A stretch of 64,000 bases of DNA from Ignavibacteriota bacterium (GTDB lineage Bacteria > Bacteroidota > Ignavibacteria > UBA10030): assembly GCA_963769605.1 (NCBI GenBank), contig CAVYML010000009.1:1419041-1483040 (forward strand), written 5' to 3'. Below, in pieces: positions 2,201 through 30,862 of the stretch. Both the position numbers and the translations under genes were made by a program. The notes below the pieces were generated by a model. That model saw only the letters and a list, made by a program, of their open reading frames with translations. It did no database searches and had not been told where the DNA came from. The first letter of the stretch is position 1, and the number at the start of each line of letters is the position of its first letter.

Positions 2201-2309
2201 CCCACCTTGGAAAGGTGTCAAAAAAGGTAATCATATTCCCTAACAAATCTGATGGTTTTGAGAGACACCTTTCCAAGGTGTCACTAAGGTGTCACTAAGG
2301 TGTCACTAT
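2201..2309. repeat. Hairpin repeat element, left copy. Arms are CCCACCTTGGAAAGGTGTC (2201-2219) and GACACCTTTCCAAGGTG (2264-2280); three tandem 11-mers GGTGTCACTAA follow (2277-2309)
   Basis: The two arms are reverse complements read directly from the sequence. A near-identical ~80-bp element recurs at 15792..15862. Partial copies of the core are at 2986, 15901 and 16211. Confidence 0.85.
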
Positions 2310-2351
2310 TTCTTCTTTTTAAAAATTGAGAACTGATTCGTGATGTTGTCT

Positions 2352-2687
2352 TCATTCTATGAGGTTGAAAATCTCTCGCCGCCCTGATTCCACAAGGGGG
2401 ATAAATTTGCCATACCATTCTCCGAATTCTTTTGCTCCCATCGCATCTTGCGATGACTTCTCGAATGCCGTGAGGTTTTCGTATGTCGATTCCATGACGA
2501 GTGTATAGAATTCTCCGGTGAGATCGGTCATAAATTGGGCCGGTGCGTGACCGAATTTCTTCATGAGCTCCTGCTGTTCTTTTATGAGGGCTTTAGCGTC
2601 TTTCGCTTTGCCGAACTTCAATGAATGAAAAGAATGCAGTGAATGAGAATATCTTCTTCTTCGTGATGATGAAATCGGTATTCTCAT
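2352..2687 (-). CDS. Hypothetical small protein; the start codon is uncertain (possibly the internal Met, which would give about 70 aa)
   Basis: The ORF is intact but has no recognisable motif. The N-terminal region is Arg/Ser/His-rich and may not be translated. Confidence 0.35.
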   Translation of the reverse strand: MRIPISSSRRRRYSHSLHSFHSLKFGKAKDAKALIKEQQELMKKFGHAPAQFMTDLTGEFYTLVMESTYENLTAFEKSSQDAMGAKEFGEWYGKFIPLVESGRREIFNLIE

Positions 2688-3106
2688 ATTTTATTATTTT
2701 GAAAAACATCAGTTTATTCTAAATCGTTCCATCCGCCTCGCGCTGCTACATGACCTCGTTTCTCGAAGACATTGTTGAGACCTGCGAACAAATCACGCCG
2801 TTTGCAAGGTTTCTGAACAGCGCGGTCATGACAGGGTCCATAATTATGCAGATATTTTTGACATGGTTTATAGCTTACATGGATTTGGAACCTGCCGAAC
2901 CTCAGGAATGACACAAATACGTTGTTTTATATGTCCATAAATTAATGTAAATTTATGGAGTTAGATTCCTTATATTTATGGCAGTGACCTACCTTGGAAA
3001 TGAAGTAAAATTGCACCGGCTGCAAGATTTCTGAACAGCGCGGTTATGTAATTATATTGAATTTGTAGTAATTAACATGATATGATTTATCAATACTAAC
3101 TTTCCG

Positions 3107-3152
3107 AAACCTTGGCAAGGGTTGGGAACCTTGCCAAGGTTTGTCCTTTTAG
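3107..3152 (+). terminator. Terminator-like hairpin: AACCTTGGCAAGG-GTTGGG-AACCTTGCCAAGGTT followed by TTTGTCCTTTT
   Basis: A perfect 13-bp inverted repeat followed by a T-rich tract, lying in the 650-bp intergenic region upstream of fic. The stem is related to the CCTTGG core of the island-boundary repeats. Confidence 0.35.
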
Positions 3153-3347
3153 CAGCAGTCTACTATTTGCTGGGAGAAGAATTCGATAGAAATCCCTTCT
3201 TAATTTTCACTTTGAGGGGCATCGAACAGCTTGTTGTACTTTCAAAAAGGAGATTTTTCTTGATTTAAACAAGAAAATTCTTATTTTAAGATAATGCCAT
3301 AAGTTAAAATACAACCTTTTCTTATTTTAAGATACTCTTGAAAGAAA

Positions 3348-4484
3348 ATGGATATAAAAGACTACAAAGCCGGCAGATACCAGCAGCAAAAACATTATCA
3401 GGCATTCTTTCCGGCAGCAATCAATTCAACCTGGACATGGTCCGATCCGAAAATAAATACGCTCCTCTCCGAAGCAAATCATAAATTAGGCGAATTGAAT
3501 GCATATTCGCTTCGCATTCCGGATGTCGAATATTTTATAGAGATGCACGTCATAAAAGAAGCAACCACTTCCAGCAAGATCGAAGGAACACAAACGGAGA
3601 TCGGCGATGTATTGCTGGCAAGGAAAGATATCGATCCTGAAAAAAGGGACGATTGGCAGGAAGTGCAGAATTATGTAAAAGCAATGAATTATGCCATTGC
3701 AAAACTCAAATCGCTGCCTCTCTCAACCCGCTTGCTCAAAGAAACGCATAAAATTCTGCTCAGTAAAGGGCGCGGAATTACGAAGCAGCCGGGTGAATAT
3801 CGCACAAGTCAGAATTGGATCGGCGGTGCGACGATCCAGGACGCCTTCTTTGTTCCTCCTCCATTTGGAGAGATTCATAGTCTGATGGGCGATTTGGAAA
3901 ACTTTCTTCATAATGATGGAATTGATGTACCGCAATTAATCAAAATTGCGATTGCGCATTATCAATTCGAAACGATCCATCCGTTCCTGGACGGTAATGG
4001 ACGAGTCGGCCGCCTGATGATAGCATTGTATCTTGTCAGCGAAGGATTGCTTGCAAAACCGACATTGTATTTATCGGATTATTTTGAAAAGAATAGAATC
4101 CTCTATTACGATAAACTTTCTATTGCGCGCACATCAAACGACCTTGCACAATGGATAAAGTTTTTCCTTATTGCGGTTATTGAGACATCGAAGAATGGAG
4201 TCAGAACATTTGAACGCATCGTCCGGCTCCGTGAGAAAATCGAAGGGGAAAAGATTATAACACTTGGCAGAAAACTCCCGAAAGCGAAAGAGCTTATGAA
4301 TGTTTTGTACAGCCGGCCAAGTCTCACGGCAGCGGAGGCGGCAGAATGTGTAAAAGTGACGCCGGCTACCGCAAATGCGCTCATCCGAGATTTTGTCAAG
4401 CTGTCGATTTTAATTGAAGTAACAGGCGGAAAGAGAAACAGAAGATTTATTTTTGAGGATTATATTAATCTATTCCAACAATGA
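3348..4484 (+). CDS. fic: Fic family protein (AMPylation/adenylyltransferase fold), class II with an N-terminal inhibitory helix
   Basis: Canonical Fic motif HPFLDGNGRVGRL. The inhibitory-helix motif (S/T)xxxE(G/N) is present upstream as SSKIEG. The length of about 378 aa fits Fic_N + Fic + C-terminal wHTH. Confidence 0.9.
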   Translation: MDIKDYKAGRYQQQKHYQAFFPAAINSTWTWSDPKINTLLSEANHKLGELNAYSLRIPDVEYFIEMHVIKEATTSSKIEGTQTEIGDVLLARKDIDPEKRDDWQEVQNYVKAMNYAIAKLKSLPLSTRLLKETHKILLSKGRGITKQPGEYRTSQNWIGGATIQDAFFVPPPFGEIHSLMGDLENFLHNDGIDVPQLIKIAIAHYQFETIHPFLDGNGRVGRLMIALYLVSEGLLAKPTLYLSDYFEKNRILYYDKLSIARTSNDLAQWIKFFLIAVIETSKNGVRTFERIVRLREKIEGEKIITLGRKLPKAKELMNVLYSRPSLTAAEAAECVKVTPATANALIRDFVKLSILIEVTGGKRNRRFIFEDYINLFQQ

Positions 4485-4563
4485 TTTGCTTGCTGTGTTC
4501 ACAAATGACATTGATGCATTTTGGCAGGAATTTTAATACGTTGTAATAAACAATCATTCGAAC

Positions 4564-7347
4564 ATGGTCAATCAAACACCTGAACAACGAGCGCGCGATT
4601 TAATCGATAAGGCATTGGAGCAATCCAGCTGGATTGTTCAGGATAAGAAAAACATCAATCTCAATGCCGGCGCAGGCATTGCCGTTCGGGAATATCAGAC
4701 CGATGCGGGTCCGGCGGATTATATTTTGTTCGCGGAAAAGAAACCTGTCGGCGTTATTGAAGCAAAGCAAACAAATGAAGGCCTCCATCTCACAGCACAC
4801 GAGCCGCAGACACAGAAATACGCCACAGCAAAACTGAAGCACCTCGATAACCAACCTCTGGTATTCTGCTATGAAAGCACGGGAGATGTAACGCGATTTA
4901 CCGATTACCGCGATCCAAAGCCGCGTTCAAGGGAAGTCTTTACATTCCATAAGCCGGAAACGTTTATTGAGTGGCTGAAGCAGGATGCGTCCTTGCGAGG
5001 ACGGCTGCAGACAATCCCTGCGCTTCCAACAGAACATTTACGCGATTGCCAGATACGCGCTATTAATAACCTTGAGGGATCGTTCAAAGAGAACCGCCCT
5101 CGCGCGTTGATACAAATGGCGACGGGTTCGGGCAAAACATTTACGGCTATTACATCGGTATACCGATTGCTGAAATATGCCGGAGCAAAACGGATTCTTT
5201 TCCTGGTGGATACGAAAAACCTCGGCGAGCAAGCGGAACAGGAATTCATGGCCTATCAGCCAAACGATGACAACCGCAGGTTCATGGAGTTGTATTCCAT
5301 TCAGCGATTGAAAAGCAACTATGTCCCGACCGATACGCATGTCTGCATTTGCACGATTCAGCGCTTGTATTCGATACTCAAAGGAACGGAATTGGACGAA
5401 GCGGCAGAAGAGGAAAATCCGAACGAGCGGAAATACCAGCCGAAGGATCCTGTGCCGGTTGCCTATAATGCAAAAGTGCCCGTCGAGTTCTTCGATTTCA
5501 TTATCATCGATGAATGCCATAGAAGCATTTACAACCTCTGGAAACAGGTACTGGATTATTTCGATTCATTCCTCATCGGACTGACAGCAACACCGGACAA
5601 CCGGACATTCGGTTTCTTCAACCAGAATATCGTTAGCGAATACACACACGAAGAAGCTGTGACCGACGGCGTGAATGTAGGAAGCGACGTCTTTACCATC
5701 GAAACGAAAATCACAAAACAGGGAAGCAGCATCCAGAAGGGACAATATGTCGATAAGCGGGAACGGCTGACGCGCAAGAAGCGATGGGAACAGACGGATG
5801 AAGATGTTGTCTATACCGGCCAGCAATTAGACAATGATGTTGTAAATCCCAGCCAGATACGCCTTATCATCAAAACATTTAAAGAATATCTTCCTGAAAT
5901 ATTTCCTGATCGCCATGATGAACGCGGGGAATTTGAAGTCCCCAAGACACTCGTCTTTGCAAAATCTGATTCGCATGCAGACGATATTATACAAATCATC
6001 AGGGAGGAATTTGCAGAGGAAAATAATTTCTGCCAGAAGATTACATATACGGCAGATAACCCAAAAACCACGCTGTCGTCTTTTCGAGGAGATTATAATC
6101 CTCGCATTGCCGTCACGGTGGATATGATTGCGACGGGAACAGATGTGCGTCCGCTGGAATGTCTGCTCTTTATGCGGGACGTGAAAAGCCGCAATTACTT
6201 TGAGCAGATGAAGGGGCGCGGCACACGAACGTTGTCACTGGATGATCTCCATAAGGTATCCAAAACAGCAAAGTGCACGAAGGATCATTTTGTTATTGTG
6301 GATGCCATCGGCGTAACGAAGAGCATTAAGACCGATATTCATCCGCTGGAACGAAAGCCCACCGTGCCGCTGAAAGATTTGCTGGAATCTGTTGCCGTGG
6401 GTGTGCGGGAAGAAGATTTATTCACATCGCTTGCCAACCGGCTTGTGCGATTAGATAGACAAATTACAGAGCCGGAGCGAAAGCTCTTTGTGGAAAAAGC
6501 GAACGGCAAGACTCCCGCACATGCAGCAAAAGAGCTTCTCAATGCTTATAACCCGGATACGCTTGAGCAGATCAAAGCAGAGATTGCCGGGAAGATGAAG
6601 AATGCATCAGCATCTGAACAACATTCAGCATTCATCACTTATCATTCCTCATTGCTCGAAGAGGCGGCGAGGATTTTTACCGGCGTGCTGAATACGTACA
6701 TCGAGAATGTGCGCAAAATACACGAACAGATTATCGATACGTTGAACCGTGATACGCTTGCCGGAGCAGGATGGCAAGCGGAGAACAAATCAAAAGCGGA
6801 AGCATTAATAAAGGAATTTACCGCGTGGATGGAATCGCATAAAGATGAGATTACTGCACTGCAGATATTTTATAACCAGCTATACCGCAGGCGTGAGCTG
6901 ACGTATGCAATGATATTAGACCTGTGCCAGAAACTGAAATTGGATGCGCCCTCGCTTGCGCCTCTGCACGTCTGGCAGGCGTATGAAATATTGGATACAA
7001 AGACTCAGCACGGCACACCAAAGAGCGAACTGACTGCACTGGTAGCGCTGATACGAACTGTATGCGGCATTAATAAGACATTAACATTGTATGATAAAAC
7101 GGTGGACAGGAATTTCCAGCAATGGATATTGAAAAAGAATGCGGGACAGCATAACCGGTTCACCGACGAGCAGATGCAATGGCTCAGAATGATTAAAGAG
7201 CATGTAGCGATGTCATTCCATATTGAGAAAGACGACTTTGAACTCGATCCGTTTAAGGCCGTGGGCGGATTGGGAAAAATGTGGCAGCTCTTTGGAGAGC
7301 AGATGGATCCGATATTGAATGAGTTGAATGAAAGTCTGGTAGCATGA
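4564..7347 (+). CDS. hsdR: Type I restriction enzyme R subunit (HsdR)
   Basis: The N-terminus is HsdR_N-like (GPADYILFAEKKPVGVIEAKQT). SF2 helicase motifs are MATGSGKTFTAI (motif I), IIIDECHRS (DEAH box) and TGTDVRPL. The C-terminus is EcoEI_R_C-like. 927 aa. Confidence 0.9.
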   Translation: MVNQTPEQRARDLIDKALEQSSWIVQDKKNINLNAGAGIAVREYQTDAGPADYILFAEKKPVGVIEAKQTNEGLHLTAHEPQTQKYATAKLKHLDNQPLVFCYESTGDVTRFTDYRDPKPRSREVFTFHKPETFIEWLKQDASLRGRLQTIPALPTEHLRDCQIRAINNLEGSFKENRPRALIQMATGSGKTFTAITSVYRLLKYAGAKRILFLVDTKNLGEQAEQEFMAYQPNDDNRRFMELYSIQRLKSNYVPTDTHVCICTIQRLYSILKGTELDEAAEEENPNERKYQPKDPVPVAYNAKVPVEFFDFIIIDECHRSIYNLWKQVLDYFDSFLIGLTATPDNRTFGFFNQNIVSEYTHEEAVTDGVNVGSDVFTIETKITKQGSSIQKGQYVDKRERLTRKKRWEQTDEDVVYTGQQLDNDVVNPSQIRLIIKTFKEYLPEIFPDRHDERGEFEVPKTLVFAKSDSHADDIIQIIREEFAEENNFCQKITYTADNPKTTLSSFRGDYNPRIAVTVDMIATGTDVRPLECLLFMRDVKSRNYFEQMKGRGTRTLSLDDLHKVSKTAKCTKDHFVIVDAIGVTKSIKTDIHPLERKPTVPLKDLLESVAVGVREEDLFTSLANRLVRLDRQITEPERKLFVEKANGKTPAHAAKELLNAYNPDTLEQIKAEIAGKMKNASASEQHSAFITYHSSLLEEAARIFTGVLNTYIENVRKIHEQIIDTLNRDTLAGAGWQAENKSKAEALIKEFTAWMESHKDEITALQIFYNQLYRRRELTYAMILDLCQKLKLDAPSLAPLHVWQAYEILDTKTQHGTPKSELTALVALIRTVCGINKTLTLYDKTVDRNFQQWILKKNAGQHNRFTDEQMQWLRMIKEHVAMSFHIEKDDFELDPFKAVGGLGKMWQLFGEQMDPILNELNESLVA

Positions 7348-8471
7348 TGCAGAAAGAATCACAGCAAATCATGATGCAGCATTCGGAAGTAAAGATAAGA
7401 TTGCTAAAACTTTATCTTGAACGATATTTGACTGTCTTAAGCATGTCGAAATACTTCGGTGATATCTATATTTATGATTTGTTCTGTGGTGAGGGAATTT
7501 ATGAAAATGGTGGCAAAGGCAGTCCAATAATTATTTTAGAGACGATTAAACCGATCTATTTCGTGAGTAAAGCAAAAGGAAATGATAAAGATAAATTTAA
7601 TTGTCTGTTTAATGATATAGATTCTGATAAAATAGAAAAATTGAGAGAAGAAATTGCCAACAGGCATCTCTATTATCCAGAAATGGGAAGGTTGGATATT
7701 CGACAAATGGATTACAAGTATCTCCTTCCCTTGGTAAATGAAGAAATAAATACATTCAAGAAGGAAAAGGCATTTGTTTTTATTGATCCCTATGGATACA
7801 AAGATATTAAGGTCTCGGATATTATGAATTTATTAAGCTCTAAAAAGTCTGAAGTGCTTTTATTTCTACCGACACAGTTTATGTTTAGATTTGAAACGAA
7901 GGGAACTCCTGTATGCTTAGTCGATTTTATCAGCGAGCTCATGCCGCAGGAAAAATGGCCAACCAGTAATACCGGAATCAATTTTATAGAAACCTTAACA
8001 GAAGCATTTCGGAAGAAGCTAGGTCCCGATTATTTTACAGACTCCTTTATTATTACACGGGAATTAAATCAATTCTTTTGTCTATTCTTTTTTACAGGCC
8101 ATATTTATGGATTTGATAGGATGCTTGATGCTAAATGGGAGATAGATGCTGAAGAAGGCCGAGGATGGTGCTATCAAACAGGCGATTCATTGTTCGATGA
8201 TGGATGTAAGGTGGCGAATACTCGTAAATTGGAGAACAAGTTGTTAGAGACTTTATCAAAAGGAGAATGCACCAATGGTGAATTATATCGATTTACACTA
8301 CAAAATGGTCATTTGCCTTGCCATTCAAACGAAATATTGACAAACCTTCAAAAGGATGGAAGGTTGGTCGTAACAAAGGCGGATGGAACAATGGCGAGGA
8401 AAGCCGCTTTTTATTTAAGCTACAAGTTATATAAAAATGAACCAGACAAAATTAAAATAAGGTTAAAATAG
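7344..8471 (+). CDS. Three-Cys-motif partner protein (TcmP family), function unknown
   Basis: The N-terminal pattern (KIRLLKLYLERYL...DLFCGEGIYENGGKGSPII) and the ~375 aa size match my recollection of the TcmP family. A Gp37/Gp68 gene follows immediately, which is the defining pairing. The start overlaps the hsdR stop (ATGA). Confidence 0.6.
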   Translation: MMQKESQQIMMQHSEVKIRLLKLYLERYLTVLSMSKYFGDIYIYDLFCGEGIYENGGKGSPIIILETIKPIYFVSKAKGNDKDKFNCLFNDIDSDKIEKLREEIANRHLYYPEMGRLDIRQMDYKYLLPLVNEEINTFKKEKAFVFIDPYGYKDIKVSDIMNLLSSKKSEVLLFLPTQFMFRFETKGTPVCLVDFISELMPQEKWPTSNTGINFIETLTEAFRKKLGPDYFTDSFIITRELNQFFCLFFFTGHIYGFDRMLDAKWEIDAEEGRGWCYQTGDSLFDDGCKVANTRKLENKLLETLSKGECTNGELYRFTLQNGHLPCHSNEILTNLQKDGRLVVTKADGTMARKAAFYLSYKLYKNEPDKIKIRLK

Positions 8472-8472
8472 C

Positions 8473-9204
8473 ATGTCAAAAACTAGCATTGAATGGACGG
8501 AAATGACATGGAATCCTATAACAGGATGCAGCAAAATATCGACTGGTTGTAAATTCTGTTATGCTGAAGTAATGTCAAAAAGATTAAAAGCAATGGGAGT
8601 AGAGAAGTACTCGAATGCTTTTAAATTGACCTTGCATGAAAGCGATTTAAATATTCCATTTGAGTGGAAAAAACCTAAAATCGTTTTTGTCAATTCAATG
8701 AGTGATTTATTTCACAAGGATGTGCCGGTTGCGTACATTCAAAGAATATTTCGAGTTATGAAAGAAAACCCTCAACATGTATTTCAAATATTAACGAAGC
8801 GAGCAGATATATTGTTGAAATATGATAAAAAGAGACTGCTTGAATGGACGCATAATATTTGGATGGGAGTTACTGTCGAAAATGATAAGGTGATGAATAG
8901 AGTTGACATGCTAAAAGCAACAAAAGCGCGAATAAAATTTCTTAGTTGTGAACCGTTGTTGAGCGATCTTCCTAGATTAAATTTAAAAGGCATAGATTGG
9001 GTTATTGTGGGAGGAGAAAGTGGAAGATCGCCAAGACCAATGAAAAAGGAATGGGTCAAGAACATTAAAAATGAATGTAAAAGATCTGATGTCGCATTTT
9101 TCTTCAAGCAATGGGGTGGAACAAATCGAAAAAAGACCGGAAGGATGCTCGATGGGAGAATGTATAGTGAGATGCCAGATTTTCAAACGGTGAATGAAAA
9201 TTAA
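8473..9204 (+). CDS. Phage Gp37/Gp68 family protein (DUF5131), three-Cys-motif protein
   Basis: The N-terminus is SIEWTEMTWNPITGCSKISTGCKFCYAE, the characteristic TKIEWTD-TWNP-TGC...GC-FCY start of PF07505. There is a 1-nt gap after tcmP. Confidence 0.75.
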   Translation: MSKTSIEWTEMTWNPITGCSKISTGCKFCYAEVMSKRLKAMGVEKYSNAFKLTLHESDLNIPFEWKKPKIVFVNSMSDLFHKDVPVAYIQRIFRVMKENPQHVFQILTKRADILLKYDKKRLLEWTHNIWMGVTVENDKVMNRVDMLKATKARIKFLSCEPLLSDLPRLNLKGIDWVIVGGESGRSPRPMKKEWVKNIKNECKRSDVAFFFKQWGGTNRKKTGRMLDGRMYSEMPDFQTVNEN

Positions 9205-9215
9205 TTTTTTAAATA

Positions 9216-10430
9216 GTGGATATAATGAATAGTAATCTGCCGAAACAGTGGAAGGTCTTAAAGCTTGGATATCTATGCAAAACAGCGACTGGTGGGACTC
9301 CTAGAAGAAATAATCCGAATTATTACACTGGCAAAATTCCTTGGGTAAAGTCTGGTGAACTTGATTATAATACGATTTTAGACACAGAGGAAAAGATAAC
9401 CAAAGATGCGATAGAGAACTCCAATGCAAAGCTATTTCCCAAAGGGTCAATACTCATAGCACTATATGGAGCTACCATCGGAAAACTGGCTATTCTCGGA
9501 ATAAATGCTACGACAAACCAAGCAATATGCGCTATATATAAAAGCGCATCTATAGAATCGAAATACCTATTTCATTTTCTTTTCTCGAAGAAACAATTCC
9601 TTGTCAAACAAAGCTTTGGCGGGGCACAACCGAATATAAGCCAAACGATACTAAGAAATCTGGATGTTCCTCTTCCACCACTTCCAGAACAACACCGCAT
9701 CGTTGCCAAAATAGAAGAACTCATTAGTGATTTGGATAAAGGAGTCGAGAGCTTAAAGACCGCACAGCAGCAGCTCAAGACCTACCGCCAGTCCGTGCTC
9801 AAATGGGCGTTTGAAGGCCACTTCACAAATAAGAACATGAAGGAAGGCGAATTGCCGGAGGGATGGAAGTGGGTGAAATTTGGTGACGTTCATGATATTA
9901 AATCAAACCTCGTAGATTCGTTAAAATATTTAGACATGCCCCATATTGCCCCTGATAATATATCCAAAGGAATTGCAAAATTATTAGGTTATAGAACTAT
10001 CAGAGAAGATAAAGTGATCAGTGCAAATCATAAATTTTTTAAAGGTCAAATAGTATATTCAAAAATTCGCCCTAATCTGACAAAAGTTATTATCGCTCCT
10101 ATCGATGGATTATGTAGTGCCGATATGTATCCGATTGATTCCAAGTATAATAATCGATATACGCTTTATTATATGTTGACTAATTCATTTGTTAAGATTG
10201 CATCAAATACTGAATCGCGAACTATTCTTCCAAAAATTAATCAAAAGGGATTAAATGCAATTCCTTTTCCTCTTTGTCCACAAGAAGAGCAAAACCAGAT
10301 TGTCCAAGAAATCGAAAGTCGTTTAAGTGTCTGCGATAAATTAGAAGAGACCATCACAGCAAACTTGCAGCAATGCGAGTCGCTGCGGCAAAGCATATTG
10401 AAGAAGGCGTTTGAAGGAAGGTTAACATAA
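9216..10430 (+). CDS. hsdS: Type I restriction-modification specificity subunit (HsdS)
   Basis: Two target-recognition domains are separated by the conserved central repeat (LPPLPEQHRIVAKIEELISDLDKG...VLKWAFEG) and the C-terminal repeat (CPQEEQNQIVQEIESRLSVCDKLEE...ILKKAFEGRL). The N-terminus is KLGYLCKTATGGTPRRNNPNYY. Confidence 0.9.
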   Translation: MDIMNSNLPKQWKVLKLGYLCKTATGGTPRRNNPNYYTGKIPWVKSGELDYNTILDTEEKITKDAIENSNAKLFPKGSILIALYGATIGKLAILGINATTNQAICAIYKSASIESKYLFHFLFSKKQFLVKQSFGGAQPNISQTILRNLDVPLPPLPEQHRIVAKIEELISDLDKGVESLKTAQQQLKTYRQSVLKWAFEGHFTNKNMKEGELPEGWKWVKFGDVHDIKSNLVDSLKYLDMPHIAPDNISKGIAKLLGYRTIREDKVISANHKFFKGQIVYSKIRPNLTKVIIAPIDGLCSADMYPIDSKYNNRYTLYYMLTNSFVKIASNTESRTILPKINQKGLNAIPFPLCPQEEQNQIVQEIESRLSVCDKLEETITANLQQCESLRQSILKKAFEGRLT

Positions 10431-10447
10431 ATAAAGGATAAAATACT

Positions 10448-12229
10448 ATGAATATAGCACCTCATAGATTAAGCATAGCTCAATTATTTGCGAGTAATAA
10501 CGAACAATTTATTGTTCCATCGTATCAGCGAAGATATGCATGGGGATACAATCAAACAGCAGCACTGTTTGATGATATAGCAATGTTAAAAAAAGAAGAC
10601 GGACATTTATTAGGAATGATTATATTGCATTGCGAAACGCATAGCGGAGATCTTAACAGACCGGAATTAGTTGATGGCCAACAACGGCTGACAACCCTCG
10701 CAATACTATTAAAAGCAATGCAATCGAGGTTCTTAGAATTAGAGAATATGGACAAAGTCTCTGATATAGAAAAAATGCTTACTTGTCATGGTCTCGATGA
10801 GAAAAAACTCCCAAAGTTGGAACTTGGTGATCTTGATCATGATGATTTAAACACACTACTTTCAAATGACCGGACAAAGGAATTCACTAACCATAATATT
10901 AAAGAAGCATACGATAATTTTAAGAATAGGATTGATGTTTTAAAAAACGATGAGTTACAAAAATATTTTTTCTCTTTAACAAATGTGGCAGTTATTATTC
11001 GCCTTGACGTGGAAAAAGCGCAAGATGCATATAAACTTTTTGAAACAATCAATAACCGTGGATTAAGACTATCTCCAACTGATATCATTAAAAATTTCCT
11101 CCTTGGACATGCAGCTAAACTTGAACCAGAGATATTCGTAAAAACGAAATCTTTATGGTCATCGATAATTACGAATCTGGACGGTATTGATTCGGACGAT
11201 TTCCTTAGGCAGTATCTCTGCTCATTATTAGTAAGGAAAGTAAGTTCATCTCAAATGGTGTATGAATTCAAAAAATATTATTTCAAACATATAAAAGATG
11301 CTGATAAACTTGGCGAATTTAGCTATTACGTTGATGAAAAAGTGCTAAATGATGAAGAGGAAACGAATGGGGAAGAATTAACGTCCGAACAAGAAATAGA
11401 TAACGGAAAAGATTCCCAAATAACTATTATAGAGTTCCTACAGAAAATCGAAGAGATTTCAAAAGTTTATAGAAAGATATCGTTAGAAGAATATGAAGAA
11501 GAAAAAGTAAATAGGCATATCAAATATTTAAACAAGATACTTTCAAGACCTACCTATATATTCCTTATGCATTTTTTGCAAAAAAACTTATCTGAAAGCA
11601 TAAAAGTCGAAGTTCTAAAAGTCCTTGAAGCATTTATGCTGCGCCGCCACATTTGCGAAAAAAGGACTGGCGAACTAGACGATATATTCTCAAAAACAAT
11701 GAAGATTATTGAATCAACAGATATTGTAGGTGATTTGCGCAAACAACTTGCTCCCGATGTTCCATCAGATGAAGCATTTAAAAATAGCTTTCCATTGCAT
11801 GTGTTTAAAGGGAAGTTAATCGATCGAGCAAAATATGTACTAGAGCAAATAGAATATCACGTAAATGGAAATACGGGAGAGCTGATCGTCGCCAGCAGTT
11901 CAGAGGTAGAGCTCGAACATGTGATACCACAAACAATATCAACTAAAAGATCCAAGGAAGAATATGGAGATTGGGAAGAATATCTAGGTCCTAATAGTTT
12001 ACAGCTTCATGAGAAATTTATTAACCTCATTGGAAATATGACACTATTGGCAGATGCATTAAACATTCAGGCCTATAACAACCCGTTTGCAAAGAAGAAG
12101 AACAGCTATAAAAAATCAAATTTTGTAATTACAAATGAGTTAGCAAAATTATCTAATTTTAGGTTTCCCAATGTGTCTAAGAGGGGTCAAGCATTAGCGG
12201 AAAAAGCAACAAAGATTTGGAAGGTTTAA
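10448..12229 (+). CDS. DUF262/DUF1524 protein; GmrSD-like modification-dependent (type IV) restriction endonuclease family
   Basis: The N-terminal DUF262 domain has the DGQQR motif (VDGQQRLTTL). The C-terminal DUF1524/His-Me finger-like region has ELEHVIPQ. 593 aa. Confidence 0.75.
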   Translation: MNIAPHRLSIAQLFASNNEQFIVPSYQRRYAWGYNQTAALFDDIAMLKKEDGHLLGMIILHCETHSGDLNRPELVDGQQRLTTLAILLKAMQSRFLELENMDKVSDIEKMLTCHGLDEKKLPKLELGDLDHDDLNTLLSNDRTKEFTNHNIKEAYDNFKNRIDVLKNDELQKYFFSLTNVAVIIRLDVEKAQDAYKLFETINNRGLRLSPTDIIKNFLLGHAAKLEPEIFVKTKSLWSSIITNLDGIDSDDFLRQYLCSLLVRKVSSSQMVYEFKKYYFKHIKDADKLGEFSYYVDEKVLNDEEETNGEELTSEQEIDNGKDSQITIIEFLQKIEEISKVYRKISLEEYEEEKVNRHIKYLNKILSRPTYIFLMHFLQKNLSESIKVEVLKVLEAFMLRRHICEKRTGELDDIFSKTMKIIESTDIVGDLRKQLAPDVPSDEAFKNSFPLHVFKGKLIDRAKYVLEQIEYHVNGNTGELIVASSSEVELEHVIPQTISTKRSKEEYGDWEEYLGPNSLQLHEKFINLIGNMTLLADALNIQAYNNPFAKKKNSYKKSNFVITNELAKLSNFRFPNVSKRGQALAEKATKIWKV

Positions 12230-12234
12230 TGTGA

Positions 12235-12572
12235 GCGACGAAACAATATCAACTATATAGCATTGTCTCCAAAATCTGGTGGTTCTGTAATACACTCCAT
12301 AAAACAAGGAAACGTCATTGTGAGAAATGAGGACATCGACGATGGACGAATGACGAAGCAATCTGATAATCAATGAAGAGATTGCCACGCAACCTAATGG
12401 TCGCTTGCAATGACGGAGCAAGAGAGAGATTGCTTCGCTGCGCTTGCAATGACGAAGTAAGTCGGCATCGTCCTGACGATAGAAAGAAAATATAAGCAAC
12501 GAAACAACATCAACCAATATCATCATCTCCAAAGTCTGGTCGTTTTGCAATACACTCCGCGATGACGGTGTA
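12235..12572. repeat. Structured intergenic region with two extra copies of the hsdM 5' end (12235-12300 degenerate; 12495-12570 near-identical) and internal inverted repeats (CGAAGCAATCT / AGATTGCTTCG; GCAATGACG x3)
   Basis: Direct comparison with 14121..14192, the real hsdM start. The 12516-12570 copy translates to IIISKVWSFCNTLRDDGV. HsdM begins MSVNNSTNSIISKVWSFCNTLRDDGV. Confidence 0.85.
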
Positions 12573-12583
12573 GAAATTAAGCA

Positions 12584-14119
12584 ATGAGTATCGAACAGGT
12601 AAAAAAGTTGTTAAAACAAAAGGAAAGTGTTCGGCTGGAATTCAAGGAGGCCGAAAACGCTTTGCCGTCTAATTTATTCGAATCAATCTGTTCAATGCTC
12701 AATCACGACGGCGGTGATATTCTCTTGGGCGTAAATAATCATGGAGGAGTCGTGGGCGTTAATCCTGCCGCGGTTGATCGGTTGAAGACAGATATTGTAA
12801 ATCTTTCCAATAATCCTCAAAAGCTCGACCCGCCGAATATATTGTTTCCTCTGGTTTATACCGCTGGTGGAAAAAAGGTTATTCATATTCAAATACCCGC
12901 GAGTTCGCAGGTTCATAAGTCCGACCACGATGTATTCGATAGGAGCAATGATGGCGATTATCGCGTTAAGCAGCCGCAGCAAATAGCAGAGATTTATAAT
13001 CGCAAACGCTTACATTATACAGAAGGAATTATTTATCCCTATGTAAAGTTTTCCGATTTTAAGGCGGATCTTTTCCCGAAAGTCCGTAATCTAATAAAAA
13101 GCAATGAAGCCAACCATCCATGGCTTTCTTTGGCCGATCAAGAAATGTTGGAAAAGGCAGGATTGTGGAAAAAGGATTATCAATCCGGAAAAGAAGGATA
13201 TACGCTTGCCGCGGCATTGTTGTTTGGAAAAGATGAAGTCATTCAGCAGATTGTGCCTCATTATAAAACCGATGCCATACTTCGAATAAAAAATAAAGCT
13301 CGATATGATGATCGGGAATATGTCCAGACAAATCTTATCGAATCGTATGAAAAGCTCATGGCGTTTGTTGCCAAGCATTTGCCGGATAAATTCTATAAAG
13401 AGGGGAATCAACGCAGGAGCCTTCGCACTGCCATATTTCATGAAATAGTCTCCAATATCATCGTTCATCGTGAATATACCAATGCCTATCCGGCGACGAT
13501 GATTATCCACCCGGATCGTGTTGAGACCGAGAACGCCAATAACCCAAACGGTCATGGACCGATTATTCTGGGAACATTTACACCTTTTCCTAAAAATCCG
13601 ACGATTGCAAAATTCTTTATTCAATTGGGACTTGTCGAAGAATTGGGATCGGGTTTTATCAATGTGAATCGTCTTATTAAAGAATATGGCGACAAGGGTT
13701 CGCCTCAATTTATTGAAGGAAATACATTCAAAATGGTGATTCCGATAAGCCAAGCACTGATGATGAAACATGCCGGTATTGCCATTCCTATTCCTGGCGA
13801 TGGCGATGAAAGTAAGGGTGCAATTGAGGGAATAAGTGATGCTGTAAATGATGCTGTAAATGATGCTGTAAATGATGCTGTAAATGATGCTGTAAGTGAT
13901 GCTGTAAAAAATCGTCTTAGGGAAGAAGTAATAAGGATCCATACAAACGGCAAGGTGCGACTACCGGAGATTATCGAAATATTTAAAATAAAAAGAGCAA
14001 CAGCACAGAGAGACATGACAACCTTAAAAGAAGCAGGAATTGTCGAGTTTAAGGGATCGCCTAAAAATGGCGGCTATTATCTAACAAAAATGGCAACAAA
14101 GAAGCTGCAAAAATTATGA
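12584..14119 (+). CDS. AlbA_2 (divergent AAA / Schlafen-like DNA-binding) domain protein with a C-terminal ATPase-like region and wHTH; putative defence-associated regulator or sensor
   Basis: The N-terminus (KESVRLEFKEAENALPSNLFESICSMLNHDGGDILLGV) is typical of the PF04326 AlbA_2 domain. The C-terminal segment is HTH-like. It contains an in-frame DAVN x6 repeat. Its stop overlaps the hsdM start. Confidence 0.65.
   Translation: MSIEQVKKLLKQKESVRLEFKEAENALPSNLFESICSMLNHDGGDILLGVNNHGGVVGVNPAAVDRLKTDIVNLSNNPQKLDPPNILFPLVYTAGGKKVIHIQIPASSQVHKSDHDVFDRSNDGDYRVKQPQQIAEIYNRKRLHYTEGIIYPYVKFSDFKADLFPKVRNLIKSNEANHPWLSLADQEMLEKAGLWKKDYQSGKEGYTLAAALLFGKDEVIQQIVPHYKTDAILRIKNKARYDDREYVQTNLIESYEKLMAFVAKHLPDKFYKEGNQRRSLRTAIFHEIVSNIIVHREYTNAYPATMIIHPDRVETENANNPNGHGPIILGTFTPFPKNPTIAKFFIQLGLVEELGSGFINVNRLIKEYGDKGSPQFIEGNTFKMVIPISQALMMKHAGIAIPIPGDGDESKGAIEGISDAVNDAVNDAVNDAVNDAVSDAVKNRLREEVIRIHTNGKVRLPEIIEIFKIKRATAQRDMTTLKEAGIVEFKGSPKNGGYYLTKMATKKLQKL
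13837..13908 (+). repeat. Perfect 12-bp tandem repeat GATGCTGTAAAT, 4 copies plus 2 variants, encoding DAVN-DAVN-DAVN-DAVN-DAVS-DAVK
   Basis: Read directly from the sequence. It is in-frame inside CDS 12584..14119. Confidence 0.95.
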
Positions 14120-15612
14120 GTGTGAACAATTCAACAAACAGCATCATCTCCAAAGTCTGGTCGTTTTGCAACACACTCCGCGATGACGGCGTGGGGTACG
14201 GCGATTACTTAGAACAGCTTACATATCTGCTCTTTCTCAAAATGGCAGACGAGCTTGGCAAGCCGCCATATAACAAAAAGCTGCCTATCCCCAAAGAGTA
14301 TAACTGGGAAAGCTTAAAGAGCAAAAATGGCTCCGAGCTGGAAGCGCAGTATACAACCCTACTGCGCGAGCTTGGCAAACAAAAAGGAATGCTCGGGCAA
14401 ATCTTTACCAAGAGCCAGAATAAAATCCAGGACCCGGCAAAACTCTTTAAGCTCATCGATTTGATCGATAAAGAGCAATGGAATGTAATGGGCGCCGATG
14501 TGAAAGGCGAAATCTACGAAGGGCTGTTAGAGAAAAATGCGGAAGATACCAAGAGCGGGGCGGGACAGTATTTTACACCGCGCGCGCTTATCAAAGTAAT
14601 GGTGGAATGTCTGCGACCCGAACCGAACAAGAAGATCATCGATCCGGCATGCGGTACCGGCGGCTTCTTCTTAACGGCATACGATTACATACTTGCCAAT
14701 CACGAATTGGATAAAGGACAAAAGACATTCCTGAAGTATAAGACTTTCTTTGGCAATGAGATCGTTGCCAATACGCGCCGGCTATGCCTGATGAATCTCT
14801 TTTTGCATAACATCGGCGACATCGAAAGCGAATCGACCATCTCTCCGAACGACTCGCTTATTGCCGATAACAGCGAACGCTACGATTATGTGCTGACAAA
14901 TCCTCCGTTTGGTAAAAAGAGCAGCATGACATTTACGAACGAAGAGGGAGAGCAGGAAAAAGAAGATTTAACCTATAACCGTCAGGACTTTTGGGCAACG
15001 ACGAGCAACAAACAGCTCAACTTTGTGCAGCATATCCATACTATTTTAAAGACAACCGGATTAGCGGCGGTTGTTGTGCCGGATAACGTACTGTTTGAAG
15101 GAGGCGCGGGAGAGACTGTCCGGAAGAAATTATTGGAAACGACAGACCTGCATACCATTTTGCGTCTGCCGACAGGAATTTTTTATGCAAATGGCGTGAA
15201 GGCAAATGTGATATTCTTTGATGCGAAACCTGCCTCCAAAGAACCGTGGACAAAGGAACTCTGGTATTACGATTACAGAACCAATGTGCATCACACGCTC
15301 AAGAAAAGCACATTGAAACAAAGCGACCTGAAAGAATTTGTCGAATGCTACAATCCAAAAAACCCTAACAAGCGGAAAGAGTTATACAACGAGAAAACGA
15401 ACCCCGAAGGCCGCTGGCGGAAATTTACATACGAAGAAATCATCAGCAGAGACAAGACCAGCTTAGACATTACGTGGTTAAAAGATAAATCCTTAGCCGA
15501 TCTGGACAACCTGCCCGATCCTGATGTCCTTGCTGCGGACATAGTCGAGAATCTGGAAGCGGGGCTGGAGAGTTTTAAAGAAATCATAGCATCATTGAAT
15601 GGGAAAGGGTAA
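14116..15612 (+). CDS. hsdM: Type I restriction-modification DNA methyltransferase subunit (HsdM), N6-adenine
   Basis: Motif I is IDPACGTGGFF and motif IV is LTNPPFGKK. The HsdM_N-like N-terminus is SKVWSFCNTLRDDGVGYGDYLEQLTYLLFLKM. 498 aa. Confidence 0.92.
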   Translation: MSVNNSTNSIISKVWSFCNTLRDDGVGYGDYLEQLTYLLFLKMADELGKPPYNKKLPIPKEYNWESLKSKNGSELEAQYTTLLRELGKQKGMLGQIFTKSQNKIQDPAKLFKLIDLIDKEQWNVMGADVKGEIYEGLLEKNAEDTKSGAGQYFTPRALIKVMVECLRPEPNKKIIDPACGTGGFFLTAYDYILANHELDKGQKTFLKYKTFFGNEIVANTRRLCLMNLFLHNIGDIESESTISPNDSLIADNSERYDYVLTNPPFGKKSSMTFTNEEGEQEKEDLTYNRQDFWATTSNKQLNFVQHIHTILKTTGLAAVVVPDNVLFEGGAGETVRKKLLETTDLHTILRLPTGIFYANGVKANVIFFDAKPASKEPWTKELWYYDYRTNVHHTLKKSTLKQSDLKEFVECYNPKNPNKRKELYNEKTNPEGRWRKFTYEEIISRDKTSLDITWLKDKSLADLDNLPDPDVLAADIVENLEAGLESFKEIIASLNGKG

Positions 15613-15791
15613 TATCGCAGATAAAAAACAAGCATAAAACCCCTATAAATATTGAAGAATCTTATGTAATGGTTATGTAATTCACACGTGGGGGAACGAT
15701 GTTTTTGTGCAAATATTAGCGGTTTTTATGTGGCAATTATGTATGGGGAGAAATTAATGACCCACCTTGAAAAGGTGTTAAAAAAATAACT

Positions 15792-15918
15792 GTAATTCCT
15801 AACAAATCTTATGGTTTCGAGTGGCACCTTTCCAAGGTGTTATTACAAATTCCCAAATAAATCCAATGGTTATTGAGGATACCTTGGAAAGGTGTCTCCC
15901 GCAATTCTGATGATTCAA
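15792..15918. repeat. Hairpin repeat element, right copy. Arms are 15792-15810 and 15845-15862, with an additional partial arm at 15901-15918
   Basis: CCCACCTTGAAAAGGTGTT ... GCACCTTTCCAAGGTGTT, and TACCTTGGAAAGGTGTCTCC. The interior (TCCTAACAAATCTTATGGTTTCGAG) matches the left copy (TCCCTAACAAATCTGATGGTTTTGAG). Confidence 0.85.
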
Positions 15919-15926
15919 ATGATCAA

Positions 15927-16027
15927 GTGGGGAATATGCTGGCCTTGGGAGTGGGGAATTGTCGTGGCCCCAGGGGTGGGGAATATGGTGGCCCTAATTA
16001 CCCTTTTAGTGGGGAATTATCGTGGCC
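15927..16027. repeat. Array of four 18-19-bp direct repeats GTGGGGAAT(A/T)(T/G)NNNTGGCC, separated by 6-15 bp (iteron-like or arm-site-like)
   Basis: Copies at 15927-15944, 15951-15969, 15976-15993 and 16009-16027, read directly. A further CCCCACCTTGGAAAGGTG copy follows at 16211-16228. Confidence 0.8.
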
Positions 16028-16395
16028 CTTGACAGAGAGGCTCTGGATTAAATTCCGCGACGCACAATTAATTGAGAAGTATAGTCAGGAAGTATCTGTC
16101 GAAAATATAAGCAAGCTTACGACATCTCAATTGATCTTCCTGACCATTTTAACGGATAAAAGATTAAAGGAGCTGCAAGTATCTCTTGAACAATGAGAAA
16201 AATTCAAGTGCCCCACCTTGGAAAGGTGAAAAGAGTGATAATAATTGACAAGATGATTGTAGCCATATTAAAAACGGAAATTATAAATATTCTTCGTCAT
16301 TGGTTAAGATATTATCCGTGGTATTCTCAATTTAAGCTGGATTGGTTGACAACAAGCGGCATAAATAAATAATTAGAGCAATGCATATAATATTG

Positions 16396-16929
16396 CTAAT
16401 AGCAATGAACATATTTTTTTATCTGAGAATTACCCTGATAGATTGGGTCTGAAGGTATTTGCTTGAGAATGTGTATTTCAGATTTGCTCACTAATATATC
16501 AAAGAGTGTATCTTCGCTTAATTGGTAAACATTCAAGATAATTGTGGATATTACTTTAAGAATTAAAGATACATTGTAATCGCATTCTAAGCGCAAATAG
16601 ACGGCTCTTCTTTTTGAGGTTTCAATAATCCTAATCGTAGAAGGGATGTTCTTCTTTTTCAATTCTGTTTGTACTAATTTAAGGAATTCATATTTTCCTT
16701 TTTTTGTGGGGATAAAAATCGACATGCGTTTCCCAACATCGTAATATCTCTCTGTCAGCATGATAACGGTTTTGTTTATATCGATTAGCAAACTCATGTG
16801 CTTTGCCCAGGGAGTTGGCAAAAGAAATTCAATAATCGAAGATTTAATTGAATTTAAAAGCACATTCTTTTTCAATCCTCTATCAAAATGGCGTGATGAA
16901 AATTTGAATATGTTGTAATAAAGATTCAT
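16396..16929 (-). CDS. Hypothetical protein (AT-rich; possible orphan immunity or accessory gene of the RHS locus)
   Basis: An intact 177-aa ORF in a block that looks markedly more AT-rich than its surroundings (16.2-18.2 kb), downstream of and co-oriented with the RHS toxin gene. No recognisable motif. Confidence 0.4.
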   Translation of the reverse strand: MNLYYNIFKFSSRHFDRGLKKNVLLNSIKSSIIEFLLPTPWAKHMSLLIDINKTVIMLTERYYDVGKRMSIFIPTKKGKYEFLKLVQTELKKKNIPSTIRIIETSKRRAVYLRLECDYNVSLILKVISTIILNVYQLSEDTLFDILVSKSEIHILKQIPSDPIYQGNSQIKKYVHCY

Positions 16930-17033
16930 ACTTATGTCAAAATATGCACAACAATCTTTTAAAGGTCTTTTTTATCCTACTCTTATTTCGTAATAAAATA
17001 TGTTCAATAGGCACGTTTTTAAAATAAGATTTC

Positions 17034-17549
17034 TTAAATACTTTGCTCTTCCTGTTTTTCAAATTCAATTGTCATGACTGTTGTCTGAAACAAACGATCA
17101 ACCGCATGCATATAAGCGCCCGTCCGTTTATCCTTGCGAAAATTGCTTGAATAAAAAATAGCATTGACGATAATACCGGCATAGAAGAAACTTGGTAATA
17201 TCATCCATAACAACAAGAGGCAGCAGACAAATTGACGTGCGCATAATTTTAATCTGCCGATTCGATGCCCATGCAAATCTGTAACTCCGATTTTTATTAC
17301 TGCGTCACCTACTCCCGCAAAATTTGCATACAGCGGCAAACCGATTCCCAAAAAGATCGTATACATTCCCCAAAGTGAATATAGTGTCCAAGAAAACAAT
17401 GAAACATCGGGAATAGGATTGAAATTGTATTTACCTGCAACCATTGCGACAGGGGGAAGAAGAATTATAATATCACATAAGAATGCAACAATCCTTTTCC
17501 AGGGTGCTGCAAGCTTTTTACTTTTCCATTGGATGTTACGTGAAGGCAT
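17034..17549 (-). CDS. Small integral membrane protein, RDD-family-like
   Basis: 171 aa with about 3-4 predicted TM helices. The N-terminus (KRIVAFLCDIIILLPP) resembles the RDD family start (RxxAxxIDxxI). Co-oriented and 3' of the RHS gene. Confidence 0.4.
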   Translation of the reverse strand: MPSRNIQWKSKKLAAPWKRIVAFLCDIIILLPPVAMVAGKYNFNPIPDVSLFSWTLYSLWGMYTIFLGIGLPLYANFAGVGDAVIKIGVTDLHGHRIGRLKLCARQFVCCLLLLWMILPSFFYAGIIVNAIFYSSNFRKDKRTGAYMHAVDRLFQTTVMTIEFEKQEEQSI

Positions 17550-17584
17550 AACGACTTGCTCATTTTATAGATTACATGTCTGGA

Positions 17585-18184
17585 TTATTTTTTGGATGAT
17601 CCGTTTTCCTCCAAAAGAGGCACTACTAATATGGATGCAAATGTTTTAGCAATTAATTTTGAAAATTCAATGACAAGTTTTTTATTATATTGCCTACGTG
17701 CAAAATATAGCGTCTCGCCTATATTATTTGAAAGAATTATTTGGATCACAGCAAAAATGCCTGAATGTCCTGAAGATATCACATCAGCACGAATACCTTT
17801 AATATTTGTTGAATTGATAATCACTTGATTGATACCGCCAAAATATTTCTTATATCCTAGAGTAAGAAAATCATGTTCAACATTGATATTCATCGGATGT
17901 TTAGTTACAGTCCATCTATAAAGGAGAAAAATGATAAGAAATAATAAAATTAAATATAGATAAACAATTTTAGGTGCGGCAACCAATTGTCTAAAAACGA
18001 TAAACGTTATAATAAGCAAAACAAACATTGCTTTTATATCATATCGTCTGTGAAGTCTGAGATAACTATCGCCTTGACTTACTATTTTGTACGGGGCTAT
18101 AGCTTTTTTTAAGTCAATATTGTCAATCATTTTTCCTCCAACTATGAGATTATTATAGCAATAAATCTCTATTTTAATAATCAT
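17585..18184 (-). CDS. Small integral membrane protein, candidate immunity protein for the upstream RHS toxin
   Basis: 199 aa (or about 182 aa from the internal MIDNIDLK start). There are 2-3 hydrophobic TM segments. Its start overlaps the RHS gene stop by about 10 nt. This is the classic position for a polymorphic-toxin immunity gene. Confidence 0.5.
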   Translation of the reverse strand: MIIKIEIYCYNNLIVGGKMIDNIDLKKAIAPYKIVSQGDSYLRLHRRYDIKAMFVLLIITFIVFRQLVAAPKIVYLYLILLFLIIFLLYRWTVTKHPMNINVEHDFLTLGYKKYFGGINQVIINSTNIKGIRADVISSGHSGIFAVIQIILSNNIGETLYFARRQYNKKLVIEFSKLIAKTFASILVVPLLEENGSSKK

Positions 18185-27794: not shown

Positions 27795-27810
27795 CCTCAG
27801 TCCCTCTGTA

Positions 27811-27886
27811 GCCGACGTCGGAAACATCCGCGATGACCCGCCAGAAGATGATGCAGGTCGGGTAAAACCGTCGCGGCTACAAAGCG
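27811..27886. repeat. Palindromic intergenic repeat (GTAGCCGACG...CGTCGCGGCTACAA hairpin) enclosing CCGCGATGACCCGCCAGAAGATGATGCAGGTCGGG
   Basis: Related copies are at 28100..28262 and 30782..30862. Shared segments are CGCGACGACCCGCCAGAAGATGATGCAGGTCGGG and CCGTCGCGGCTACAA. Confidence 0.8.
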
Positions 27887-28099: not shown

Positions 28100-28262
28100 C
28101 CTGCCCGACTGACGACGCCCGCCAAAATGCGCAGCGGGTTGGCAGTCATTCAGGCGGGTGACGTCGGATGCATCCGCGACGACCCGCCAGAAGATGATGC
28201 AGGTCGGGCCCGCCAAAAGGTAAAGCAAGCGGGTAAACAAACCCGTCGCGGCTACAAGAGAA
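28100..28262. repeat. Second copy of the GTAGCCGCG/CGTCGCGGCTACAA palindromic repeat family, upstream of lon
   Basis: The 33-bp core CCAGAAGATGATGCAGGTCGGG is shared with 27826-27858. It ends with CCCGTCGCGGCTACAAGAG. Confidence 0.8.
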
Positions 28263-30781: not shown

Positions 30782-30862
30782 TGTAGCCGCGGATGATTCC
30801 GCGACGACCTCCCGATAATATTTAACAACATTCTCGGGACAAGCTGTCGCGGCTACAATGCG
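30782..30862. repeat. Third copy of the palindromic repeat family (GTAGCCGCGGATG...GTCGCGGCTACAATGCG), probably also the lon terminator
   Basis: An inverted repeat of GTAGCCGCG lies immediately 3' of the lon stop. Confidence 0.75.

Follow-up and report, generated by a model that had tools for sequence, protein, structure and literature searches.

CACCTT hairpins beside a type I restriction-modification island of an Ignavibacteriota bacterium: a REPIN-like repeat family at probable sites of gene-order reshuffling

When copies of a hairpin stand on both sides of a defense island, are they the ends of a unit that moves, or repeats of the neighborhood in which the island is found? The question is raised by a 64-kb stretch of an Ignavibacteriota bacterium (contig CAVYML010000009.1, positions 1,419,041 to 1,483,040; hereafter the window), in which a type I restriction-modification (R-M) operon and other defense genes lie between copies of a hairpin element whose arms begin with CACCTT. 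We consider it probable, short of certain, that the hairpins are a lineage-specific, noncoding, dispersed family of repetitive extragenic palindromic (REP) doublets, similar to REPINs and BIMEs, in a rearrangement-prone neighborhood, and that they are neither att sites nor transposon ends. On the best reading of the locus, the copies mark sites of gene-order reshuffling rather than the ends of a mobile island.

Three hairpin copies, E1, E2, and E3, are present in the window, at coordinates that we have corrected in part. E1 (2199 to 2284, + strand; left arm 2203 to 2217, loop, right arm 2266 to 2280) lies where the original prediction had placed it (2201 to 2283), and its first bases supply the TGA stop codon of an ABC-2 permease gene. 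The hairpin formerly assigned to 15792 to 15862 is really E2 (15759 to 15841, +); the earlier range was about 30 nt off and straddled E2 and the overlapping copy E3 (15825 to 15898, +), the arm at 15825 to 15839 being common to both, as the right arm of E2 and the left arm of E3. E3 has a 40-nt loop and the rare TCC...GGA configuration. A truncated element, TGACCTACCTTGGAAATGAAGTAAAA, at 2985 to 3010 (+) and a lone arm, a singlet remnant, at 16210 to 16237 (+) agree with the extra arms announced at 2986 and 16211, but the one announced at 15901 is really at 15880 to 15894. With up to two mismatches allowed, the arm CACCTTGGAAAGGTG occurs six times in the 64 kb (0.13 expected by chance), each time within 2203 to 2280 or 15763 to 16228. 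A profile built from 12 copies found its matches confined to 2.2 to 3.0 kb and 15.8 to 16.2 kb, with no further match in the remaining 48 kb of the window.

As RNA, E1 folds into a 17-bp stem with a 44-nt loop (-34.4 kcal/mol, z = -4.05), and the long stem forms again when E1 is folded as single-stranded DNA (z = -5.0). Folded alone as single-stranded DNA, E2 gives a much weaker structure (-9.9 kcal/mol, z = -1.9); the 150-nt stretch that holds E2 and E3 (15756 to 15905) reaches -42.2 kcal/mol as RNA (z = -4.3). Scans for sigma-70 promoters and for terminators returned nothing at E1 or E2, and the sole terminator-like call among these hairpins fell on a related one at 3107 to 3142 (+), the CCTTGGCAAGG hairpin, which has the predicted location, a 14-bp stem, and a folding energy of -25.2 kcal/mol. 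It is 97% identical to a hairpin located 3′ of an SNF2 helicase gene in the sister clade introduced below.

The unit of the family is a 15-nt imperfect palindrome, CACCTT-GGA-AAGGTG, present twice in inverted orientation around a spacer of 44 to 48 nt. A single arm is a 6-3-6 palindrome, the direction of which is set by the central triplet only; 8 copies have the triplet pair GGA/TCC, 3 have TCC/GGA, and in 5 the two triplets do not match. Among 16 aligned copies, mean pairwise identity is 98.5% over the 24 outer arm positions and 61% over the spacer, the former value being inflated because the genome scan described below required exact arms. The long stem (15 to 17 bp) is paired in 89% of the pair cells of these 16 copies, versus 36 to 55% when the partner is slid. 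Shared-arm arrays and decayed single arms are both present in the family. All copies are extragenic, 9 of 12 lie at most 200 bp downstream of a co-oriented gene, and a copy in situ would probably give the transcript of the preceding gene a 3′-terminal RNA hairpin. Searches of Rfam at gathering and permissive thresholds yielded only chance matches to miRNA-like hairpins.

How widely is this family distributed? A pattern scan with exact arms over 185,579 species genomes revealed it in one other genome, the Ignavibacteriota metagenome-assembled genome (MAG) MFD01476.bin.2.1 (the sister MAG), whose genes in common with the source are 95 to 98% identical. What the scan picked up in other phyla proved to be tRNA genes or tandem repeats unrelated to the element, searches of viral contigs, JGI metagenomes, and plasmids and phages (BLAST) gave nothing or spurious matches of the same two kinds, and more distant NIPSNAP loci hold no copy. 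The sister MAG carries at least 13 full copies at 10 loci, which bears out the suggestion of a multicopy family of the REP or miniature inverted-repeat transposable element (MITE) kind. In this genome (L-numbers designate the loci compared), copies neighbor genes for a Fer4 protein and an S9 peptidase (L004), HSP20 and ParE (L009), RecQ and a DUF4143 ATPase (L016), an acyl-ACP thioesterase (L019), an ABC-F protein and an Fe-hydrogenase (L024), an S41 peptidase absent from the source (L014), and a NIPSNAP protein next to another type I R-M island (L005); three copies stand in tandem after UvrD (L006), and two in direct orientation flank HipBA (L015). About half of the loci are beside housekeeping genes and about half beside toxin-antitoxin (TA), R-M, or DUF4143-ATPase modules. 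The copy number appears to be in the tens per genome, and a generic repeat scattered at hundreds of random sites, which would have spoken against any tie to islands, is not what we find. The supposed association with variable islands holds to the extent that copies tend to border segments differing between relatives.

The comparison of the locus itself covers three lineages, all of them metagenome assemblies. E1 and E2, which had been described as near-identical, are members of different subfamilies, with an identity of only 82.6%. E1 shares 94.2% identity with its orthologue, the sister-MAG copy after NIPSNAP at L005; for E2, the value is 91.8% with an unrelated copy of that genome at L014. 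E1 is the resident copy 3′ of the conserved NIPSNAP gene, and E2 and E3 are copies of the other subfamily 3′ of hsdM. The right end of E1 (2275 to 2307, +) carries three tandem copies of the 11-nt AAGGTGTCACT, versus one at the orthologous copy.

Gene order in the sister MAG, settled by a look-up of its NIPSNAP protein, reads in window orientation ABC ATPase, ABC-2 permease, 7.25 kb, an E1-type element, and NIPSNAP, followed by DUF4143 ATPase, HsdM, DUF1016, ORF6N, AlbA_2, HsdS, Abi_C, and HsdR. In this genome, too, the place is thus taken by NIPSNAP and a type I R-M island, but the island is a different one. The 7.25 kb, absent from the source, consist of transport and small genes with one copy of the element. 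Since it is by these transport genes that the permease and NIPSNAP are separated in the sister MAG, E1 marks a non-defense indel and not an edge of the island; the comparison expected to expose an empty site exposed this indel instead. The sister clade was sampled at L039, L040, and L044 to L053, from 24 contigs read with the same 131-aa NIPSNAP protein. Its order is RecQ, NIPSNAP, Fic (95% identical to that of the window), and then variable restriction-type gene sets, which are either an HsdR...HsdS...AlbA_2-HsdM scaffold with other inserts or an SNF2/Eco57I-type set. Three contigs (L044 to L046) have the same type I R-M backbone as the window, with an HsdR allele that is only ~71% identical. 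No full hairpin was found within 10 kb in the sister-clade loci (at least 11 contigs), and the island scaffold therefore exists without flanking hairpins. Relatives with the same content and no repeats were named in the original prediction as evidence that would count against it, and the sister clade, with its Fic and R-M backbone, is such a case.

If the copies do not delimit the island, what do they mark? Homology between relatives breaks at several of them. One end of the 7.25-kb indel coincides exactly with the left edge of E1: the permease gene ends in GAT-TGA-CCCACC in the source, whereas the sister MAG has GAT-TAA-TTTCAC. Another breakpoint falls where the L014 copy ends on the right (L014 3950 versus L001 4591), with an S41-peptidase segment present only in the sister MAG. 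At the truncated copy (window position 2985), where the homology of the relatives ends, the source, the sister MAG, and L014 part ways. Immediately after RecQ, the sister clade has a decayed copy that aligns with the intact one following RecQ in the sister MAG; RecQ and NIPSNAP are ~25 kb apart in the latter, where copies bound the stretch, and ~300 bp apart in the former, with two element remnants in between. Long palindromes may act as sites prone to breakage or recombination, possibly through hairpin or cruciform extrusion or through cutting by an enzyme acting in trans (a Y1/HUH transposase, for instance); such events would delete, translocate, or replace the segments that lie between copies. 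The island would lie between two copies because the neighborhood running from RecQ to NIPSNAP to the type I R-M genes is repeat rich and unstable, and not through being carried by the copies.

This architecture is reminiscent of REPINs and BIMEs, REP doublets associated with RAYT transposases (Bertels and Rainey; PMC3116915, PMC3337134). REPINs consist of imperfect palindromes with an orientation-setting center, in a common and a rare doublet configuration, with a variable spacer, clusters, and decaying singlets (PMC3337134). The CACCTT family likewise has short imperfect palindromes inverted into a long hairpin, arms better conserved than the spacer (with the caveat of the exact-arm scan), a palindrome center that sets orientation, one common and one rare configuration, and a dispersed, extragenic, multicopy occurrence with tandem clusters, decaying singlets, and a vertical, lineage-specific distribution. 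It differs in having tens of copies where REPINs have hundreds, in being AT rich and devoid of a GTAG head, and in its Ignavibacteriota host. Neisseria dRS3/RS arrays, in which neighboring units share a palindrome, lie beside strain-variable genes and were proposed to promote recombination and gene replacement (PMC1797815). The CACCTT copies resemble these Neisseria NIMEs in their short 6-N-6 palindromes bounding spacers of ~50 to 150 bp, their shared-palindrome arrays, and the variable genes nearby. The likeness is one of architecture only, the dRS3 sequence (ATTCCCN8GGGAAT) being unrelated to CACCTT and the hosts unrelated; moreover, dRS3 is a known phage integration target, a link not seen here, and the CACCTT family has far fewer copies. 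Correia elements and other MITEs are also small, noncoding, intergenic, and multicopy, with terminal inverted repeats, but the CACCTT family shows no target-site duplication, each of its arms is itself palindromic, and searches of plasmids, phages, viral contigs, and, the sister MAG aside, the 185,579 genomes turned up no parent insertion sequence sharing its ends. The family is new; its architecture belongs to the known REP-doublet/NIME-like repeats, beside a known kind of type I R-M island.

Several points weigh against this reading. No cognate RAYT, as known for REPINs, or other transposase was found in the window or beside any of 13 copies, and no Y1_Tnp domain was detected among the long window open reading frames (ORFs) tested or beside the 13 sister-MAG copies. 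No evidence of transposition of the element came from the flanks: those of 13 copies share no consistent k-mer that could be a target-site duplication, and no clean case of presence versus absence of a copy with both flanks intact was found, the differences all involving larger segments. The invariance of the arms is partly an artifact of the exact-arm scan. The comparison extends to three metagenome-assembled lineages only, and assemblies can break or misjoin at repeats. Finally, since about half of the sister-MAG copies adjoin TA, R-M, or DUF4143-ATPase modules, the copies could have a more active role in cassette gain.

What else could the hairpins be? Were E1 and E2 the attL and attR of an integrative island that has lost its integrase, the direct orientation of the two terminal copies, the exact coincidence of the left junction with a stop codon, and the lower GC content of the interior between E1 and E2 would all be accounted for. 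This explanation is largely refuted and, to our mind, very improbable: the two supposed ends come from different subfamilies (82.6% alike), E1 is kept next to NIPSNAP in the sister MAG, whose island differs, the difference on the left in that genome is the 7.25 kb of transport genes and not an island, and no single-copy empty site was found among the relatives compared. As the original prediction had noted, there is no integrase or transposase among the long ORFs tested across the window, and no tRNA or tmRNA that could be an integration target was found. The proposal that E1 and E2 are unit ends or att sites that mobilized or targeted the island is not supported, in view of the same low identity and of the position of the E1 orthologue at a different island. 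An attL/attR pair, integron attC sites, and a single-event duplication were all rejected on sequence grounds. The resemblance to attC sites and CALIN arrays lies in hairpins of ~60 to 140 bp, located 3′ of genes in direct orientation and bracketing cassettes that include TA genes; the CACCTTGGAAAGGTG arms, however, have no RYYYAAC/GTTRRRY core, no IntI integrase is present in the window, the cassette genes are in either orientation, and one "cassette" would measure 12.7 kb. Less drastically, the hairpins may be true recombination sites, attC- or dRS3-like, at which a putative site-specific or HUH recombinase exchanges cassettes, candidates for which are the 12.7-kb defense block, HipBA, and the S41 peptidase. 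In favor of this, HipBA in the sister MAG is flanked by direct copies, as are the NIPSNAP cassette and the island of the window, breakpoints coincide exactly with edges of the element, the 6-3-6 arms are of a type bound by dimeric proteins, an IS200/IS605-family Y1 gene lies inside the homologous island of sister genomes, and a similar hypothesis was published for Neisseria dRS3/NIME arrays (PMC1797815). We nevertheless think it rather unlikely, given that no recombinase lies near any copy, that the Y1 gene has no CACCTT arms around it, that the flanking copies are neither chimeric nor especially alike, that cassette genes are in mixed orientation, that the same island scaffold stands in the sister clade with no full element beside it, and that many copies have housekeeping genes on both sides. 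It is likewise doubtful that the CACCTT hairpins serve as sites for a putative trans-acting enzyme (e.g., an IS200-like Y1 protein) that cuts hairpin DNA, resulting in integrase-free cassette exchange; if it were true, such enzyme-driven exchange of defense blocks and TA pairs would constitute an integron- or NIME-like cassette system in Ignavibacteriota.

A further explanation confines the hairpins to the RNA level, as 3′ stabilizers, terminators, or other structural RNAs that accumulated passively, with the position of the island a coincidence. The frequent location downstream of co-oriented genes (9 of 12 copies), the very stable hairpin, and the conservation of the arms far above that of the loop are what it would predict, and REP doublets have been co-opted for attenuation (PMC3337134). 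Against it, no T-run follows the stem, neither E1 nor E2 was called as terminator-like, and no Rfam family matches; it also leaves unexplained the four independent breakpoints at or inside copies and the clustering of all window copies in 14 of the 64 kb. We therefore hold an RNA-only role to be unlikely, and we retain REP doublets marking sites of reshuffling as the favored interpretation.

The genes between and around the copies are consistent with a turnover of the island by a separate route. To the left of E1 are the ABC ATPase and the ABC-2 permease. The interior, which had been described as entirely defense related, includes SoFic (Fic_N and Fic domains; 3348 to 4484), HsdR, the type I restriction subunit (4564 to 7347), PDC-M30A (the TcmP partner, GMT-wHTH) and PDC-M30B (DUF5131) between hsdR and hsdS (7344 to 9204), HsdS (9216 to 10430), a GmrSD-type (HEC-06-like) type IV restriction enzyme within the type I operon (10448 to 12229), an AlbA_2/HATPase_c_4 protein (12584 to 14119), and HsdM (14116 to 15612), all on the + strand. 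The description fails for the NIPSNAP-family gene (2352 to 2687, -), which is not defense related, has 94 homologues in related bacteria (~98 aa), and is conserved in many Ignavibacteria/Bacteroidota. This small ORF by E1 was considered as a mobile-element gene, a possibility ruled out by its being a conserved NIPSNAP gene. With hsdR, hsdS, and hsdM in one operon and unrelated defense genes between them, the locus is a type I R-M system with embedded defense genes. Such operons with embedded GmrSD-like genes are known, as in TgvAB of Vibrio VPI-2 and the HEC-06 candidates (PMC11411939), HEC-06 being also a PADLOC family. They have in common with the present operon GmrSD-like genes and other small systems between hsdR, hsdS, and hsdM; here, a single operon holds three inserts (PDC-M30A/B, GmrSD, and AlbA_2) together with duplicates of the 5′ end of hsdM, and sister genomes hold other inserts in the same scaffold.

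The hsdM duplications lie upstream of the AlbA_2 gene (+). About the first 80 nt of hsdM (compare 14110 to 14192) recur at 12489 to 12571 with 92% identity, and a second, more decayed duplicate (about 61 to 73% identity) is found at 12228 to 12311. Judged from the sequence, they look like scars of cassette insertion before hsdM. In sister genomes, ~150 bp of the hsdS 3′ end, with three small 6-3-6 hairpins (GATGCC-GAA-GGCATC and others), are duplicated on either side of a 116-aa gene; this gene lies just upstream of the Y1 transposase gene mentioned above, which is inside the homologous type I R-M operon (L045 3008 to 3472, also in L044 and L046). Together, the duplicated hsdM 5′ ends and the hsdS 3′ duplicates of the sister clade point to cassette exchange anchored in conserved hsd genes, by which cassettes would be swapped within a conserved Fic/type I R-M scaffold.

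Between NIPSNAP and Fic, the window holds a patchwork of debris. It comprises a conserved segment, "M" (2891 to 2984, +; small hairpin at ~2935 to 2958), the truncated copy, the CCTTGGCAAGG hairpin, and a 77-bp fragment of a SWIM gene (3152 to 3228, no strand assigned). In the sister MAG (L014), the M segment stands immediately before a full element, and in the sister clade it is found on the opposite side of NIPSNAP. The 77-bp relic matches, at 98.7% identity, part of the interior of a called sister-clade gene with a weak SWIM-domain match, and we would read it as a deletion scar. At the other end, E3 has a right extension (15895 to 16034, +) with four GTGGGGAATWTNNTGGCC direct repeats that is homologous to L004 5254 to 5369; the repeats themselves (~15927 to 16028) form a module kept after an E3-type copy on another sister-MAG contig (L004 5288 to 5369). 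Three independent short-read contigs break at window position 15969. An ORF at 15873 to 16196 is probably not a gene, since it matches no family and its conservation does not extend past the repeat module.

Other observations concern the surroundings. On the 5′ side of NIPSNAP (2352 to 2687), defense sets vary by relative (L037, L038, and L041 to L047), and other relatives have none there. The sets are SoFic with a type I R-M system; a DUF4143 ATPase with another type I R-M system; ORF6N, DUF4357, a Dam methylase, ParB_N, and PRTase-CE; or PLD-SNF2, KilA-N, and an Eco57I-type methylase. This side of NIPSNAP is a candidate defense hot spot independent of the hairpins. Some sister-clade genomes (L045 17445 to 18355) have a second NIPSNAP gene flanked by ~85-bp direct repeats similar to window positions 2741 to 2829, and others (L044 17445 to 17611) have the ~85-bp segment once and no second NIPSNAP gene; the second gene has the look of a small cassette gained or lost between direct repeats. 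The source has a DUF559 (Vsr-like endonuclease) gene upstream of the ABC transporter (L001 7134 to 7952) that the sister MAG lacks (L014 1397 to 1427), an indel of ~800 bp with no hairpin element at its ends. The flanks had been predicted to be housekeeping genes, which is right for the ABC transporter on the left; on the right stands an RHS/teneurin-like YD-shell protein of 2889 aa with Glucodextranase-B repeats, of toxin type (18174 to 26843, -), followed by low-GC small ORFs (16396 to 18184), one of them of the RDD family. The RHS protein and these ORFs are probably toxin-tip and immunity cassettes. A second, GC-rich hairpin family with GTAG heads (TGTAGCCGCGACG...CGTCGCGGCTACA), resembling canonical REPs/REPINs, is intergenic around the Lon gene (27808 to 27882, ~28160 to 28258, and 30783 to 30858) and also lies beside CACCTT copies in the sister MAG (L009, L016, and L024).

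Many defense islands have no integrase, and their turnover is poorly understood. The present case advises caution, as a pair of repeats around an island is not evidence that the repeats move it; the genome-wide distribution of the repeats and the orthologous loci should be considered first. This locus suggests that two ordinary routes may operate together in an uncultured lineage, with palindromic repeats serving as rearrangement junctions and cassettes being swapped within a conserved scaffold.

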